A stretch of 20,000 bases of DNA from an uncultured virus (IMG/VR IMGVR_UViG_3300042731_005566) (Duplodnaviria; Heunggongvirae; Uroviricota; Caudoviricetes), in the IMG/VR virus record IMGVR_UViG_3300042731_005566; one strand, written 5' to 3'. Shown here piece by piece: positions 1-12,693 of this stretch; within the stretch, counting starts at the first letter, position 1; each line of letters opens with the position of its first letter. The notes beneath the pieces are model-generated. The model was given only the letters and a program-made list of their open reading frames with translations, made no database searches and was not told the DNA's origin. Made by a program: the position numbers and the translations under genes.

Positions 1-32
1 CGTGCAATTGCCGCGGCCAAAGCTTTCTGCCA

Positions 33-287
33 CCCGAAATGCTAGCTCGATGGCTACTCAATCGAGACGCGTAGCGGAAGCCAGTTCGCTCCTCGGGGTG
101 CTCCCCGGAATGCTAGCTCGATGGCTACTCAATCGAGACCGTATCGAGCCGAGCCCGAAGGCGTTCGCGCCCCAGACCCGGAATGCTAGCTCGATGGCTA
201 CCCAATCGAGACTACAAAACGGGGCCAGCGGTGTTTTTCCGTGGCCGGCCCCCCGGAATGCTAGCTCGATGGCTATTCAATCAAGAC
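33..287 (+). CRISPR. CRISPR array, regular part: four 36-bp repeats with unique 35/37/39-bp spacers (may continue left of the window)
   Basis: Repeats at 33-68, 104-139, 177-212 and 252-287, consensus CCCGGAATGCTAGCTCGATGGCTACTCAATCGAGAC, with 0-2 mismatches each. Internal hairpin CTCGAT/ATCGAG and a 3' end of ...GAGAC. Spacers 69-103, 140-176 and 213-251 are unrelated to each other. Strand is inferred from the AC 3' end and from decay toward the right. Confidence 0.85.
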
Positions 288-319
288 GCCACGCCAGGAT
301 GTAGACACGGAGGACTGAA

Positions 320-652
320 ATGGGAATGAAACCGAGACCGAAGAAAAGAACGGATCCACAGGTCCGTGAAACGTTGGTGTCTGCCGCCGACCGATTGATC
401 GAGACTCTGGAAGACCTCCTACAACCATATGAGCGGGAAAAGGCGGAGGTGGTGATCAATGTGGCTCGGGAGGCTATTTACGAGTTGCAGTACGCCAATC
501 CGAACACCGAGATCGTACTCAAAAGCGTGCTACAGGCGTACCTGACGCCGGACGTCGGTATCTACCATTCCGGGTACGAAGCCGCCTTCACGAAGAAGTA
601 CGCCAAACTCGAAAAGATCATCAAGAAGGTCGTCGAGGCGACTGGCATGTAG
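320..652 (+). CDS. Hypothetical protein (110 aa) inserted inside the repeat array
   Basis: GGAGGA RBS at 309-314, natural helical-looking sequence, followed by a terminator. Confidence 0.75.
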   Translation: MGMKPRPKKRTDPQVRETLVSAADRLIETLEDLLQPYEREKAEVVINVAREAIYELQYANPNTEIVLKSVLQAYLTPDVGIYHSGYEAAFTKKYAKLEKIIKKVVEATGM

Positions 653-660
653 CAGCTTGA

Positions 661-694
661 ATGCTTCCTTGTCGGTCAGGGGAGCATCCCTTTT
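661..694 (+). terminator. Putative intrinsic terminator
   Basis: ATGCTTCCTTG-tcggt-CAGGGGAGCAT forms an 11-bp stem with two G-U pairs, followed by CCCTTTT, directly after the stop at 652. Confidence 0.6.
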
Positions 695-1254
695 CAATCG
701 AGACTTGAGCACCAAGGGCGACGACAATCATGCTAGCTCGATGGCTATTCAATCGAGACTTGAGCACCAAGGGCGACGACAACCATGCTAGCTCGATGAC
801 TATTCAATCGAGACCTCGGCCCCGCAACCAACGAAGACCCGGAATGCTAGCTCGATGACTACTCAATCGAGACGTCGGATTTGGGATCGAGGCTACCCAA
901 TCGAGACAGCCTAGCTCGTCTTTCGACGCGTCGAGATCGAACCCAGAATGCTAGCTCGATGGCTACCCAATCGAGACGCGAGCGACAACCTGGCGCGCGG
1001 TCTCAAAGTCGCGACCCGGAATGCTAGCTCGAAGATGATGAATCCGATGCAATTGAATCAGCCATGATCCGTGCTGGACTCATTTGGAAATGTGTCGAGT
1101 GCGGCTACAACAACGAACCAGACTACACTGCGTGCGATAACTGTGACAGAGAACGCGAGGACGGGTGTCCCGGAATGCTAGCTCGATGGCTACCCAATCG
1201 AGACGCCGTAGATCAACACCAGGTGGTCCCAGAATGCTGGCTCGATGGCTAGAC
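693..1254 (+). CRISPR. Degenerate continuation of the same array (full, truncated and internally deleted repeats)
   Basis: Repeat pieces at 693-704 (3' 12 nt), 730-759 and 785-814 (lacking 5' CCCGGA), 838-873 (full), 891-907 (3' half), 942-977 (full), 1015-1032 (5' half), 1169-1204 (full) and 1228-1254 (internal deletion). Spacers are 17-37 bp, and one is duplicated (705-729 = 760-784, 1 mismatch). Confidence 0.75.
1064..1252 (+). CDS. RanBP2/NZF-type zinc-finger mini-protein whose C-terminus reads through repeat sequence
   Basis: WKCVECGYNNEPDYTACDNC matches W-x-C-x2-C-x3-N-x6-C-x2-C exactly. No obvious RBS. Confidence 0.6.
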   Translation: MIRAGLIWKCVECGYNNEPDYTACDNCDREREDGCPGMLARWLPNRDAVDQHQVVPECWLDG

Positions 1255-1297
1255 GTGTCCGGGTCCGGCAGAAAACAAGAAAGAGGAGTTTAGTGAC

Positions 1298-1537
1298 GTG
1301 GACAGCGACGATCCGATCGTGGTGCGTGTGAAGAAGGCACGGTGGGAAACACTCGGGCTCGACATGCCTCGGGATACCTACAGTGTCATGGCGATTGAGC
1401 TACCGAGCGGTCGCCGCCTTGTAGCTATTGTTCCTTCTGGCATTGACGAAGCAGACGCCAGGTTTGCTGAACAGGAGCTGCGCAGCCTGGCCGATGTGAT
1501 CGCTGGATTTTTTGGTCCTGCATCGACGAATTCATAG
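1298..1537 (+). CDS. Hypothetical protein (79 aa)
   Basis: AGAGGAG RBS upstream of the GTG start; plausible composition. Confidence 0.6.
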   Translation: MDSDDPIVVRVKKARWETLGLDMPRDTYSVMAIELPSGRRLVAIVPSGIDEADARFAEQELRSLADVIAGFFGPASTNS

Positions 1538-1713
1538 CGCGTTTTTTTGGGTACTTCACGATGGTGGTATGGCACGCTAAAATCGCGTCCGCGATCATCG
1601 ACGTGAAGCTTGCACGCAGCATCAATTCTAGGTAAAAACGAGGTAGGACGCGTCCCTGTACTACTGCTCTCAACTCCTCGACGCGTGGGGAGCAAACCGA
1701 AAGACGAGAACGA

Positions 1714-4340: not shown

Positions 4341-4523
4341 ATGTGTGACGCTCCGCTCTGCAACCGGCCCGCGCTCAAGTGGGATCTCTGCACTGCACAT
4401 CTCGTGCTGTTCTGCCATCTCCTCGACCGCCGAATCGAAATCCCAGAATTTGACCGGCTCATGTCGTTGCCTACTGAAACCATGCTACAGGAACTCAACC
4501 GGCGTTTTCAGGTGCCCCAGTAA
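4341..4523 (+). CDS. Small putative zinc-binding protein
   Basis: CDAPLC...LCTAH pattern; same orientation as the surrounding operon. Confidence 0.5.
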   Translation: MCDAPLCNRPALKWDLCTAHLVLFCHLLDRRIEIPEFDRLMSLPTETMLQELNRRFQVPQ

Positions 4524-4569
4524 AAGACCCGACCGTCATTACCACTCCAGATGGTTTCAGATTCGCGCG

Positions 4570-4785
4570 ATGAATAGGCACTGGTGCTGCATTTGCGGAG
4601 CGGGATTCGAGACGGCGGGCGGACTGCGGCGCCATCTTCGGAACGTTCACTCCGAGGATACGGTAACCGATCACTCCTTTCGAGCGATTCGCTATTCGCA
4701 CAACGGGCAACTACGAACAGGGAATTGCGCGATCTGCTATCGGCCCGCGCAATTGCACATGCGAGGTGAGCATGGAGACAGTTGA
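4570..4785 (+). CDS. Small C2H2 zinc-finger protein (start revised to ATG 4570)
   Basis: CICGAGFETAGGLRRHLRNVH canonical C2H2 spacing, plus CAIC...H. Confidence 0.65.
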   Translation: MNRHWCCICGAGFETAGGLRRHLRNVHSEDTVTDHSFRAIRYSHNGQLRTGNCAICYRPAQLHMRGEHGDS

Positions 4786-4942
4786 GTGCGCACGATGCCA
4801 TGGTCGGATCGTGGTGAACAAAGAACTATACTGGGCGGACGTCCCGAGCGTCGGCGTGCTTTGCAATGCGTGCCACGAACGATGGCTAGAAGGTGAGCTA
4901 GCGGAAACAACCGATCCAGCTGAGGTGAAGAACGATGGCTGA
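4772..4942 (+). CDS. Small zinc-ribbon protein (56 aa, below the ORF-track cutoff)
   Basis: Hand translation METVECARCHGRIVVNKELYWADVPSVGVLCNACHERWLEG...; GAGGTG RBS; overlaps both neighbours. Confidence 0.6.
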   Translation: METVECARCHGRIVVNKELYWADVPSVGVLCNACHERWLEGELAETTDPAEVKNDG

Positions 4943-5117
4943 TCCCGAATTCAAAGACATGACAGGAGAGCCACGTTCGGACGCAGAGCTGCAAGAAGCG
5001 GTCGAACGGCATCTGGTTCGCAGCATGAACAAGCTGATTGATGGAAGTGCCCGATTTGTTCATGGCGCTCACGACGATTCACGATGCGTTGCAAGAGCTG
5101 CTCGCGATTCGCGGTGA
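4935..5117 (+). CDS. Hypothetical protein, possibly frameshifted near 5038
   Basis: GAGGTG RBS. The +1 frame from 5041 (MEVPDLFMALTTIHDALQELLAIRG) looks more protein-like than the in-frame tail. Confidence 0.45.
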   Translation: MADPEFKDMTGEPRSDAELQEAVERHLVRSMNKLIDGSARFVHGAHDDSRCVARAARDSR

Positions 5118-5129
5118 GGGAATGAAAGG

Positions 5130-5801
5130 ATGCCGCTAGAGCTACGGCAAGTAAAGCGTAGTGTGTATTGCATGACCTATGTGCCCGCGTACGACGAGCC
5201 TCACCTCTGGTTGTGGTTGGGGTGGCGTAACACCCACTACGTGATGCGTTTCGCGTACGAACTCGTAGATCGCGAACTCGCAAAGTTGGACCGATTCGGG
5301 CGTAGACCGAGCAAGAGTCGCCGATGGCGCGGCGTGGGCATACGATCGAGGCATGTAAAAACGATACGTTCTGTGATGAAGTTCCTCCGCAATGCACATG
5401 CTCGCGCAGCGGATAACGCTATGCGGTTGTCCAATATGAGAAATAGTCGTCCCCGACCTGAAAGTGTAGAAATGGTCAGCGAACTGAAAGACGTTTTCTG
5501 GGCTCACCTATTAACAGGTCCAGACGCTTACGGTGCGCGAATCGCGGACCAACTATATCAACGACTCACGATTCCCGAAAAAGACCTCACCGAGGTCCAC
5601 CTTCAGTACCGCCTCAACGATCTCACCAACGGTCGAGGCAGCCAAATACATGATGTTGACGTCGGCTATGCTTGCTTGGCCGCTTGCGAGATAGGACACT
5701 GGGATATCGCGCGCGACATCGCCCTATCTGCTCTGGTGCACGATGATGAACATACGTTGGGTGAGATCCCCGAAACAAAACAGACCCACTCCCGAATATG
5801 A
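5130..5801 (+). CDS. Hypothetical protein (223 aa)
   Basis: Long ORF in operon orientation, overlapping the next gene. Confidence 0.65.
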   Translation: MPLELRQVKRSVYCMTYVPAYDEPHLWLWLGWRNTHYVMRFAYELVDRELAKLDRFGRRPSKSRRWRGVGIRSRHVKTIRSVMKFLRNAHARAADNAMRLSNMRNSRPRPESVEMVSELKDVFWAHLLTGPDAYGARIADQLYQRLTIPEKDLTEVHLQYRLNDLTNGRGSQIHDVDVGYACLAACEIGHWDIARDIALSALVHDDEHTLGEIPETKQTHSRI

Positions 5802-8028: not shown

Positions 8029-10383
8029 GTGGAACTGCTGCAACCGAATCTGACCACTATTGGGGAGAGTGTCCTAGCGAAACGGTATCTGAAGCGGAAC
8101 GAGAAAGGGGAAGTCATCGAGACGCCACGCGACCGCTTCGTTGCAGTAGCCAAGCATGTCGCACGAGCAGAACGCAATCACGGCGTCGATCCGGAGACGG
8201 TGTGGCCCTCCTTCTATCGCATGATGGCCGCCCGAGATTTCATGCCAAACACGCCCTGCTTGGTAAATGCGGGACTGTCCGCCGGGCTCCTGTCCGCCTG
8301 CATCGTGTTGCCCATCGAGGACTCGATGCCGAGCATCTTCGGAACACTGCGCGACATGGCATTGAGCCACCAACAGGGCGCTGGGACGGGGTTCAGTTTT
8401 TCGCGGCTGCGCCCCAAAGACGACTTCGTGCGATCCACTACCGGACTTGCGAGTGGTCCGATCAGCTTCATGAAGGCATACAACAACGTTACGGAGTGCG
8501 TGAAGCAAAGCGGCGTTCGGCGCGGGGCGAACATAAGCGTCTTGCGTTGCGACCACCCGGATATTCTCGACTTCATCGACTGCAAGAAAGATCCGAGCGA
8601 GCTACAGAACTTCAACATCAGTGTCGGGATCACGAACGCCTTCATGGACGCGTTGGCAGCAGACGCAATGTACGCGCTGGTCAACCCACGCACGAATGAG
8701 GTTGTGAGCGAGCTAGCAGCTCGAATGGTTTTCGATCGGGTCGTTCGCAACGCACATGCCACAGGTGAGCCAGGGCTCTTCTTCCTAGATCGTGTGAATG
8801 AACTCGATCCGTTGACGACGGCCGACGATCCGATTGAAGCCCCAAATCCATGCGGCGAGCAGCCACTTCACCCGTATGACGCTTGCGATCTGGGATCGAT
8901 CAATCTCGTCAACTTCTACGACGTAGCAAATCGAGAATTGGACTTCAAGCGACTCGAAGCTACGACGCAGCTCGCTGTGCGCTTCCTCGATGACATCCAC
9001 GACGTCAACCAGTACCCGATTCCTCAGTTGGCAGAACGCACACGGGAAAATCGCCGTGTTGGCCTCGGCGTCATGGGCTGGGCGGACCTCCTGATCAAGA
9101 TGGGTGTTCCCTACGCGTCACAGCAAGCGCGCGACCTCGCCGGCAACGTGATGAAGTTCATCAACACGCAGGCAATCGAAGCCAGCGAGGAGCTAGCAGC
9201 GCTTCGTGGACCGTTTCCAGCATTCGAGCGTTCAAAACACTTCACGGCGGGGCGCAAACACCGTCGCAACGGGACGGTGACCACGATTGCGCCAACCGGA
9301 TCCATCTCGATCATCGCGGGATGTTCTAGCGGCATAGAGCCGTTGTTTGCCATCGTCCAGACGCGCAGGCAAGCCGACATGGAGATGGTAGACGTCAACC
9401 CAGACTTCGTCGAGATCGCGAAGCGGGAAGGCTTCTACAGTGATGCGCTCATGGAACGCGTCAAAGAGAACGGCACCGTTCGAGACGATCCCGACGTGCC
9501 CACACGATGGCAACGTGTCTTCGCGGTCGCCAACGAAATCGATCCAGCTGCGCATGTGCAGATGCAAGCCGCATTTCAGCAGCACGTCGAGTGCGCGGTG
9601 TCCAAAACGATCAACATGCCCAAAGACGCGACCGTTGCTGACGTAGAACGCGCCTACAAGCTCGCCTGGGAAGAAGGTTGCAAGGGCATCACGGTCTATC
9701 GCGATCAGTGCCGTGCGAATCAAACCCTGACGCTTGGTACCGGCAAGCGCCCCGAGCTGCACCCCATCCCGACGGGTACATATGATCTCCTCGGCGAGAT
9801 GATCAAGACGCCCACAGGCAAGCTCAGCGTCAAGGTCGGGTTGGACATCAACGACCGGCCGTTTGAAACCTGGCTCGCTGTCAGCCGTGCTGGCACAGCA
9901 GTCAGCGCCGACTGTGAGGCCATTGCCCGGCTGGGATCCCTGGTGCTCCGGCTGGACAGCCCGATCAGCCCCGAGCGGCGCCTCCAGCTCATCGCGGACC
10001 AGCTCTCGGGCATCGGCGGGGGGGATTCGGTGGGATTTGGGCAAGAACGGGTCCTGTCACTCCCAGATGGGGTCGCCAAGGCCCTCCGTTCGCTCGCTGA
10101 CGCGCTCGAAAGCCGCCGAGCGTCTACGCAGGCCTCGCCAGCAGAGGCCGTCGTAGAGCCTCCAGGGGCACCTAAGGGGGATAGCCACGGCAACGGGCAC
10201 GGCAATGGGCACGGGCACGGAAATGGCCATGGAAACGGCAACGGGAATGGGAATGGCAACGGTAACGGCAACGGCCACAAACACGTTGCCTTCGGCGACA
10301 TCTGCCCAGATTGCCACCAGGTCGCGCTGTACTACGCCGAGGGCTGCGCCAAGTGCGCGCTGTGCGGCTTCTCGCGTTGTTGA
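8029..10383 (+). CDS. nrdJ: Class II (adenosylcobalamin-dependent) ribonucleotide reductase with TSCPD-like region and C-terminal Zn ribbon
   Basis: Motifs PNTPCLVNAG, LSACIV, GAGTG, VRRGANI, GEPGLFF, NPCGEQPL, CDLGSINL, TIAPTGSIS, SSGIEP, VSKTIN, KGITVYRD. C-terminal CPDC...EGCAKCALCGFSRC. No class I beta subunit adjacent; GGAG RBS; no ATP cone. Confidence 0.93.
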   Translation: MELLQPNLTTIGESVLAKRYLKRNEKGEVIETPRDRFVAVAKHVARAERNHGVDPETVWPSFYRMMAARDFMPNTPCLVNAGLSAGLLSACIVLPIEDSMPSIFGTLRDMALSHQQGAGTGFSFSRLRPKDDFVRSTTGLASGPISFMKAYNNVTECVKQSGVRRGANISVLRCDHPDILDFIDCKKDPSELQNFNISVGITNAFMDALAADAMYALVNPRTNEVVSELAARMVFDRVVRNAHATGEPGLFFLDRVNELDPLTTADDPIEAPNPCGEQPLHPYDACDLGSINLVNFYDVANRELDFKRLEATTQLAVRFLDDIHDVNQYPIPQLAERTRENRRVGLGVMGWADLLIKMGVPYASQQARDLAGNVMKFINTQAIEASEELAALRGPFPAFERSKHFTAGRKHRRNGTVTTIAPTGSISIIAGCSSGIEPLFAIVQTRRQADMEMVDVNPDFVEIAKREGFYSDALMERVKENGTVRDDPDVPTRWQRVFAVANEIDPAAHVQMQAAFQQHVECAVSKTINMPKDATVADVERAYKLAWEEGCKGITVYRDQCRANQTLTLGTGKRPELHPIPTGTYDLLGEMIKTPTGKLSVKVGLDINDRPFETWLAVSRAGTAVSADCEAIARLGSLVLRLDSPISPERRLQLIADQLSGIGGGDSVGFGQERVLSLPDGVAKALRSLADALESRRASTQASPAEAVVEPPGAPKGDSHGNGHGNGHGHGNGHGNGNGNGNGNGNGNGHKHVAFGDICPDCHQVALYYAEGCAKCALCGFSRC
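10186..10278 (+). repeat. In-frame Gly-Asn/Gly-His low-complexity repeat in NrdJ
   Basis: HGNGHGNGHGHGNGHGNGNGNGNGNGNGNGH with varied synonymous codons. Confidence 0.9.
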
Positions 10384-12602: not shown

Positions 12603-12693
12603 GGAGCGCCATGAAAGCCTCGAAAAGTTTCAACAAGCACGCCGCTACAACGTGAGGTTAGCACCCGAGTGTGGCGCCGTGGTACGTTGAGAC

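Follow-up and report, generated by a model that had tools for sequence, protein, structure and literature searches.

A probable type V-M-like CRISPR-Cas locus with a compact Cas12m effector on a 147-kb element classed as viral

Introduction

Cas12m proteins, the effectors of type V-M CRISPR-Cas systems, are reported to bind DNA without cleaving it, even as variants with a D-E-D triad at the RuvC site, and to process their guide RNA independently of RuvC (PMC11013384, PMC10442227). The CRISPR RNA (crRNA) of Cas12m2 is described as having a 36-nucleotide (nt) scaffold with a six-pair pseudoknot, formed by positions -22..-17 with -8..-3, together with a G:A pair, a flipped-out A and a terminal C(-1); His269 and Arg270 of the protein read C(-1), and this His-Arg pair is said to read the G:A pair as well. 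Here we describe a putative relative of these systems that straddles the left end of a 20,000-nt stretch of viral DNA (the window), which is the reverse strand of bases 69244-89243 in the 146,941-base-pair (bp) IMG/VR record IMGVR_UViG_3300042731_005566 (G000). Sites outside the window are given in extrapolated window coordinates. We consider it probable that this is a type V-M-like CRISPR-Cas locus, on an element of ~147 kilobases (kb) classed as viral, which binds without cutting and is aimed at related, competing phages.

The locus resembles the characterised Cas12m systems (Cas12m2, 8HHL; GoCas12m, 8PM4; and 23vw_A; PMC10442227, PMC11013384) in several respects. These chains are the best profile and fold matches of the effector and share with it a TnpB-like core and a zinc-ribbon TNB domain; the 36-nt repeat has the stem, pseudoknot, G:A pair and terminal C, the protein has the His-Arg pair and a non-canonical RuvC site, there is no trans-activating crRNA (tracrRNA), and a T-rich 5' flank is seen at one protospacer. 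It departs from the solved chains, which have 577-614 amino acids (aa), in that its family has 471-531 aa, a D-K-D triad, ~18% identity to them and a stop codon inside the first repeat, and from characterised Cas12m in that the family was found here on viral or metagenomic contigs only.

Virus-borne Cas12m is not new in kind, as shown by the prophage cases in PMC11656645 and by MvCas12m of the myxophage MV-1, a protein of 610 aa with a D305/E463/D555 triad, which its preprint reports as the first phage Cas12m (bioRxiv 10.64898/2026.09.14.751636). In that description, as here, a Cas12m gene lies beside an array on a phage genome, with no cas1, cas2, cas4 or tracrRNA, and no protospacers were found for the spacers of the array. 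Compared by description only, MvCas12m fits a group of larger D-E-D proteins on viral contigs (L019-L030), whereas the protein described here is a compact D-K-D form for which a cross-phage protospacer was found. What is new relative to the literature surveyed is the compact subclade with a D-K-D triad, its abundance on viral contigs, a stop codon that falls in repeat 1 and the cross-phage protospacer. Virus-borne mini-CRISPR arrays in interviral conflict, as described in PMC11656645, also have spacers to related viruses, no adaptation genes and solitary repeats, but they use a host effector, whereas G000 encodes its own.

Two other systems invite comparison. TnpB with its omega-RNA has a common protein ancestry with the effector and a guide scaffold that begins inside the 3' end of the protein gene; unlike it, the present locus has a multi-spacer array with turnover between relatives and has lost the RuvC Glu, and no transposon ends were noticed. 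Cas12j (CasPhi) of huge phages is likewise a compact, phage-borne, tracrRNA-free type V effector. Its arrays have a 36-nt repeat with a 3' hairpin, and CasPhi is an active nuclease. The effector described here matches CasPhi only weakly, in profile and in fold.

Effector gene and array A

The original prediction, made from the letters of the window, was of a phage-borne CRISPR array with a 36-nt, 3'-hairpin repeat. This repeat, CCCGGAATGCTAGCTCGATGGCTACYCAATCGAGAC, lies on the + strand at 33-68, 104-139, 177-212 and 252-287. Its predicted anatomy (A-G, a CTCGAT arm, a 9-nt loop, an ATCGAG arm and a terminal A-C) was borne out, the terminal copy at 252-287 being degenerate, with ATCAAG in place of ATCGAG and one pseudoknot pair lost. 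With the copies to the left of the window, array A comprises 6 repeats and 5 spacers, as follows.

-1684..-101, + strand (G000:C1:89345-90928, minus strand of the record): cas12m-like gene, 527 aa
-113..-78 and -41..-6 (the latter with 2 changes): repeats left of the window, where array A starts
-77..-42: spacer A1, 36 nt
-5..32: spacer A2, 38 nt, of which the final 32 nt are window 1..32 (+ strand)
69-103: spacer A3, 35 nt
140-176: spacer A4, 37 nt
213-251: spacer A5, 39 nt

The four window repeats belong to a real CRISPR array. With up to 3 mismatches allowed, the window holds 9 matches to a 28-nt core of the repeat, where 200 shuffles lead one to expect 0.00, and the full record holds 12 repeat copies, all on one strand. 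No copy on the opposite strand (anti-repeat), at up to 6 changes, was found across the whole record. Six-frame searches gave no match to Cas1, Cas2 or Cas4 in G000, and none to Cas1 in four related viral records, including two complete ones that have terminal repeats.

The window itself has no cas gene in view, as had been stated, and a compact, TnpB-derived RuvC effector had been expected just to its left. The record beyond the left edge of the window holds a Cas12m-type open reading frame (ORF) that ends at -101, ~100 bases to the left of the window. The ATG shared by its relatives gives a protein of 527 aa, and an upstream TTG at -1726 gives one of 541 aa, on which residue numbers are based below. 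The TAG stop codon (-103..-101) occupies positions 11-13 of repeat 1 (-113..-78), and the same overlap of gene and repeat is present in relatives, including that on a metagenome contig (L034) considered below.

Several lines of comparison place this protein. It matches Pfam PF07282 (Cas12f1-like TNB zinc ribbon) at 26.5 bits against a cut-off of 26.3, and the PADLOC model Cas12u1 (the old name of Cas12m) with an expectation value (E) of 1.3e-35; no NCBIfam family matched. A word-indexed search gathered a family of 23 proteins including its own, none of them named, of 471-531 aa and 36-76% identity (BLASTP), in all of which (23/23) the four cysteines of the zinc ribbon are invariant. Among solved Cas12m chains, the profile of this family matches 23vw_A at 1.5e-37, Cas12m2 at 2.9e-21, 8pm4 at 1.7e-14 and UnCas12m4a at 2.8e-13; the same profile matches TnpB at 2e-7 to 6e-4, Cas12f at 0.09 and, in the zinc ribbon only, Cas_phi3 at 0.015. 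An AlphaFold2 model of the effector (mean predicted local distance difference test score, 81.9; predicted template modelling [TM] score, 0.59) gave Foldseek matches whose four highest-ranking entries are Cas12m structures (1.8e-20 to 4e-17), with moderate TM scores of 0.49-0.56. They are followed by TnpB at 2e-12, Cas12f at 2e-11 and CasPhi-2 at 2.4e-6 (TM, 0.24-0.30). As predicted by sequence and modelled fold, the effector is a Cas12m (type V-M) and not a Cas12j; the first of the two families named in the original prediction is upheld and the second falls away.

These data also bear on the suggestions that the array is an orphan mini-array or decoy, which uses or jams a host effector, or that it is part of a Cas12j-type phage system. 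A repeat with a 3' hairpin ending in AC is seen in several type V families, and solitary repeats and units with short spacers do exist here. However, the element carries its own cognate effector gene in cis, which runs into repeat 1 as it does in relatives, and CasPhi is far weaker than Cas12m as a match both in profile (0.015 against 1.5e-37) and in fold (about 2e-6 against 1.8e-20). Furthermore, the effector family had no match in 4 metagenome-assembled genomes (MAGs) and 401 Acidobacteriota genomes, and no relative among 124 candidates from a pattern scan of species genomes, a weak test that used two peptide patterns only. We regard either suggestion as hardly credible.

Repeat scaffold

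The hairpin of the repeat is its minimum-energy fold, at -6.8 kcal/mol, which is not unusual (z, -0.46; 53 of 200 shuffles fold as well). Because the fold energy is unremarkable against shuffles, the evidence for structure comes from covariation among relatives. The array lies directly downstream of the gene in 16 of 17 related viral loci, and the 17th locus ends 324 bases past the match. Repeats from these loci have 36-37 nt and end in GAC (CAC in L023), with A35 and C36 invariant. They have a common layout, which a script picked out in 10 and inspection by eye in the other 3 of 13 related repeats: a stem arm of 3-5 bp, two unpaired bases (often A-G), a 6-bp arm, the stem partner, a loop of 3-7 nt, the 6-bp partner and A-C.

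A covariance model in which the 6-bp helix was the sole structure detected 144 copies, and every one lies on the strand of the gene. In the resulting alignment, which was fitted to the pseudoknot helix and whose rows are mutually related, that helix is paired in 98.1% of cells, and 5 of its 6 pairs show compensatory changes. For the stem, which lies outside the model, ~81% of cells are paired at the three inner pairs (double changes: 5, 13 and 8), against 28-40% in a control with the partners slid by 1-3 columns. We suggest that the repeat folds as a stem-plus-pseudoknot scaffold of the Cas12m2 type, a prediction backed by compensatory changes across 13 related viral arrays. On the protein side, H243-R244 is invariant in the family and aligns with the His-Arg pair of Cas12m2 in the profile alignment, and by analogy this pair may contact C(-1) of the crRNA.

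One related array (L030) contains two repeat types. A second variant, at 8300-9100, has compensatory changes in the pseudoknot arms, from CGAGGTCG/CGACCTCG to CGGAGTC/GACTCCG. Apparent ORF-sized gaps in this array were rejected, as the second variant fills them.

RuvC site and the compact subclade

The RuvC triad of the effector, D290, K419 and D498, is invariant in 23 of 23 family members. The middle Lys stands in a VxxK[DN]T motif where relatives carry VLEE or VLVDD, and in the profile alignment it pairs with the Glu of 23vw_A and with the Asp of Cas12m2. With a Lys in place of the middle carboxylate, catalysis by this RuvC site would be very unlikely. The site is non-canonical, as expected for type V-M.

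The D-K-D triad goes with small size. In a comparison of 20 rows from viral contigs, one of them a fragment without data, D-K-D is found on compact proteins of 498-531 aa (the present effector, L015, L016, L017, L034 and five database proteins), and the larger proteins of 580-783 aa (L019-L030) have D-E-D or, in one case, D-E-N. A hidden Markov model (HMM) search of 1.84 billion representatives gave 4,611 proteins at E<=0.001 and 1,383 at E<=1e-30, with scores that fall sharply past ~13 full-length D-K-D representatives. The triads of the aligned proteins were as follows.

DED: 100 of 167 aligned proteins
DKD: 32 of 167, plus 2 fragments with K
NED: 10 of 167
NDD: 8 of 167
Other or gapped: 15 of 167

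Triads reported for Cas12m are HEK/HQK, HDD, DED/NED, DND and NDD (PMC10442227, PMC11013384, 2026 preprint). D-K-D is not among the triads that these sources report and may be recorded in Wu 2022 or in supplements. The subclade would represent a natural Cas12m of ~470-530 aa, below the 581 aa of an engineered 'miniature' Cas12m (2026 preprint), and its invariant Lys in place of the RuvC Glu makes it a candidate compact DNA-binding platform. Cas12m-type systems also appear to be common on viral contigs, as two short peptide patterns alone gave 17 loci against one reported case. In sequence, modelled fold, repeat architecture and locus make-up, each test of type V-M membership that could be run gave the result expected of a member.

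Spacers and a candidate target

The most informative relative is L034, a metagenome contig of 2,863 bp. Its effector is 62% identical to that of G000, its repeat differs at 1 of 36 positions and its stop codon also lies in the repeat. The L034 array has seven regular, gene-proximal spacers that are absent here, then units with spacers of 7-22 nt, and its last spacer (L034 2796-2831) is 92% identical to A2. The window and L034 arrays appear, by their sequences, to have an old spacer in common, with different gene-proximal ends and distal erosion, an erosion that array B of the window (described below) resembles. Although the two effectors have no more than 62% identity, the repeats are 1/36 apart and one spacer is 92% common; either arrays may be exchanged between phages or the A2-type spacer may be under selection.

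When 105 spacers from all loci were compared with G000 and 18 loci, 11 non-self matches were obtained at E<=0.01. Two were strong: the common A2-type spacer (1.3e-7) and L034 spacer 1, taken to be the newest of its array (8e-12), the latter matching G000 at the following site.

20346-20381, - strand (G000:C1:68863-68898, plus strand of the record): protospacer of L034 spacer 1, ~350 bases past the right end of the window

The match holds at 34 of 36 positions, the exceptions being spacer positions 2 and 21, and its ends coincide with those of the spacer. The protospacer lies within an ORF of 433 aa with a T5orf172/MUG113 domain and is flanked on its 5' side by TTG, where the equivalent position of the array has GAC. 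Protospacer adjacent motifs (PAMs) reported for Cas12m are T/C-rich and YTN (PMC11013384; 2026 preprint), both of which TTG fits (n = 1 protospacer). This protospacer suggests phage-versus-phage targeting. It would be sequence evidence that the Cas12m array of one phage is aimed at a related phage, and would carry 'interference without cutting' from plasmids to phage rivalry. An escape mutation could account for the mismatch at seed position 2.

The other nine matches were short and partial; two were inspected and rejected, being GC-rich stretches of 18-21 nt in the 3' half of spacers from L027 and L030. The original prediction had proposed a search of spacers against viral and host genomes and derivation of a PAM. 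This was productive for L034 spacer 1, with its TTG-flanked match in G000, and gave no target for the window's own spacers. Against their own genome these spacers gave nothing above 16 nt, against five related viral records nothing better than E 0.1, and neither array part matched GenBank phages (blastn). Among PLSDB plasmids there were two chance-level matches, both rejected: 26 of 27 nt of spacer A4 in a Burkholderia replicon (E 0.4), and another that fell in the ORF of 110 aa between the arrays and in no spacer. Exact searches of a viral collection with the 24-nt starts of A3-A5 and the 19-nt start of A2 found the near-identical sister record L014 only; such an exact-word scan is weak, as the true L034 protospacer, with its mismatches at 2 and 21, would have failed it. 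The A2 19-mer had four matches in species genomes, which were also rejected. They lie in Acidobacteriota MAGs, extend over 19-20 nt in three unrelated genes and compare with ~4 expected by chance, and are at most a hint of composition or host.

By analogy with characterised Cas12m, the locus may work as follows. The cas12m gene and the array would be transcribed together, and the effector would cleave this precursor transcript in the 5' portion of each repeat. The ~24 nt at the 3' end of the repeat would be kept as a handle with a pseudoknot, and the spacer that follows would provide the guide in its first ~17-20 nt. The complex would then bind double-stranded DNA tightly beside a T-rich 5' PAM and block transcription or replication there, with no cutting. 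The likely targets are related, competing phages, as suggested by the gene-proximal spacer of a sister element that near-perfectly matches a G000 gene with a TTG flank. New spacers appear to join at the gene-proximal end; older units would erode, which would account for array B.

Array B and repeats outside the arrays

A second, eroded array lies to the right of array A, with small ORFs between and within the repeats.

690-1251, + strand: array B, irregular and eroded
724/730-759, 779/785-814, 838-873, 942-977 and 1169-1204, + strand: intact scaffolds of array B
690-704, 891-907, 1015-1032 and 1228-1251, + strand: repeat fragments of array B
320-652, + strand: ORF of 110 aa between the arrays, with a GGAGGA ribosome-binding site 5 nt upstream and a GC content at third codon positions of 0.71
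656-702, + strand: hairpin after ORF 320-652, -18.1 kcal/mol (z, -2.4), followed by CCCUUUUC
1064-1252, + strand: ORF of 62 aa that lies in a 136-bp insertion of array B and encodes a CxxC...CxxC zinc ribbon
72696-72731, strand of the arrays (G000:C1:16513-16548, minus strand of the record): solitary full repeat, 72.7 kb off

The spacers of array B have 25 nt (a tandem duplicate, 705-729 and 760-784), 23, 17, 34, 37 and 23 nt. A 55-bp unit is tandemly duplicated, and the contig from one sequencing run has one copy fewer. Across four wetland DNA runs the locus is identical except for this one skipped 55-bp unit, perhaps an assembly collapse, and contigs break at the repeats.

ORF 320-652 belongs to no known family, and its sole relative is an 82%-identical protein of 110 aa on a short contig. 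The hairpin that follows it may be a terminator; it overlaps the 3' repeat fragment at 690-704. ORF 1064-1252 matches Zn_ribbon_RanBP at 25.8 bits, under the cut-off of 27, and its reading frame crosses the repeat at 1169-1204; we are unsure that it is a real gene. Neither of these array-adjacent ORFs has a relative in the 17 related loci. Rfam gave no match in window 1-1700 at E up to 1, and a scan of 1-1800 for promoters and terminators stayed at chance level, with no promoter-like site in the part of the array inside the window. The presence of genes within the repeat region could reflect recombination at repeats, or a regulatory use of the repeats.

The solitary repeat is antisense to the final ~45 nt of an ORF with an RF-1 domain. 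This ORF (L035:16115-16558:+ of G000) encodes 147 aa with the RF-1/PCRF domains of peptide-release factors. Similar repeats occur on L017, a 43-kb viral contig with a D-K-D Cas12m, which has six solitary or paired repeats outside its main array between small ORFs (4500-5430; 12612-12647). Upstream of cas12m, L017 has five solitary repeats flanking small ORFs, one repeat stopping 2 nt short of an ATG.

Such placements are what self-regulation would lead one to expect. Under this explanation, the repeats punctuate the element's own transcripts, with cutting of repeats by Cas12m setting the ends, stability or translation of mRNAs, or the system represses its own element by RNA guidance, and defence is secondary. 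Self-regulation is the main alternative to phage rivalry because the rest of the L034 genome is unseen. ORFs 320-652 and 1064-1252 lie between and inside the arrays; the terminal repeat of array A is followed after 32 nt by an ATG and the final fragment of array B after ~45 nt by the next ORF, and a solitary repeat is found far from the locus. The repeats of L017, whose effector is 39% identical, flank small ORFs in the same manner, and Cas12m is described as a binder and not a cutter (PMC11013384). However, the guides match their own genome over no more than 16 nt, the interrupting ORFs are not conserved in the 17 related loci, and most related arrays are regular and uninterrupted, the apparent gaps of L030 being a second repeat variant. 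A clear protospacer of the foreign type is also present. On balance, we judge self-regulation to be distinctly unlikely. A narrower proposal, which we hold to be quite unlikely, is that punctuation is a second job of Cas12m repeats, in which solitary or terminal repeats 2-50 nt before small ORFs, on G000 and L017 alike, give rise to cut-and-capped crRNA-mRNA chimeras with a stability or translation under control of the effector; a separate part of this proposal is that arrays grow at a 'leader' formed by the 3' end of cas12m, without a phage Cas1-Cas2.

The erosion of array B also raises the possibility of a decaying relic, a non-working locus inherited from a plasmid or host, with eroding arrays and a dead nuclease. 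Array B is fragmented, with repeat halves and spacers down to 17 nt, the older part of the L034 array has spacers of 7-22 nt and the terminal repeat of array A is mutated; the RuvC site lacks its Glu, no adaptation genes were found and the window's own spacers have no targets found. Nevertheless, the effector has an intact ORF, and relatives of 42-76% identity are invariant in over 50 columns, among them those of the zinc-ribbon cysteines and the His-Arg pair. The Lys that replaces the Glu is conserved and not random, and hence the loss of the Glu would be old and selected. The gene-proximal repeats are perfect and their spacers regular (35-39 nt), L034 has 7 regular spacers that are absent here, one of which matches G000, and characterised Cas12m proteins function without cleavage (PMC11013384). 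Decay of the whole locus is, in our opinion, highly improbable.

Carrier element

A number of observations weigh against the reading of a phage-borne system that binds its rivals without cutting. The near-identity of the arrays across four runs means that no ongoing spacer gain is seen in the population, and array B and the terminal repeat of array A are decayed. Searches for targets of the window's own spacers gave nothing above chance level in the collections covered. The PAM comes from a single protospacer, which is mismatched at seed position 2, and the L034 spacer could equally match the genome of L034 itself, the rest of which is unseen, which would indicate self-regulation and not rivalry. 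That the effector binds but does not cut is inferred from its relatives and from the Lys. Finally, there are two points that concern the carrier. Type V-M is described as strongly enriched on plasmids, with some cases in prophages (PMC11656645), and no capsid, portal, tail or large-terminase family was found among 178 ORFs (149 + 29) with PHROGs, nor were capsid, portal or large terminase recognised with Pfam (29 + 38 ORFs), NCBIfam (35 ORFs) or six-frame searches.

The last two points are consistent with a carrier that is a plasmid or other non-viral mobile element mis-classed as a virus, bearing the same system. Against this, the record is listed in its collection as viral, linear and 94% complete, and G000 has many genes typical of phages: a DNA polymerase, a primase, four helicases, six HNH endonucleases, methyltransferases, a Sak4-like protein, an integrase, a ribonucleotide reductase and an M15 peptidase (lysin). 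No conjugation or partition genes were seen among the matches. Relatives of the effector are found on viral records with direct terminal repeats (G405, G409), and one D-K-D relative (L017) has a large-terminase gene after its array. A 'terminase small subunit' in G000 amounts to two weak secondary matches, beneath stronger helix-turn-helix (HTH) and HNH matches. An alternative genetic code as the cause of the missing structural genes was rejected, as coding density under table 11 is 0.73-0.93. We think a non-viral carrier unlikely and continue to read G000 as a phage-like element; the claim that the array is phage-borne is upheld in part, by the viral class that the collection gives the record, although no capsid, portal or large-terminase gene was recognised there.

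Other features of the record

To the right of array B, at 1714-2328 of the window, there is an ORF of 204 aa with two excisionase-type HTH_17 domains joined by a basic linker, which contains a 27-bp tandem repeat (1931-1980). Elsewhere on G000, an ORF at L042:2258-3247:- encodes a pentapeptide-repeat protein of 329 aa, whose HetL-, Qnr- and MfpA-like matches are far under the cut-offs. Language-model neighbours of two large ORFs of no assigned function scored below 0.9 and are leads only. An ORF of 868 aa at L037:5039-7645:- (G000:C1:41039-43645) has a Major Vault Protein shoulder (3.2e-30) and Vault_3 repeats, which is unusual on a virus-like element. The ribonucleotide reductase, at 8029-10383 of the window, has 784 aa and comprises barrel, all-alpha and TSCPD domains.

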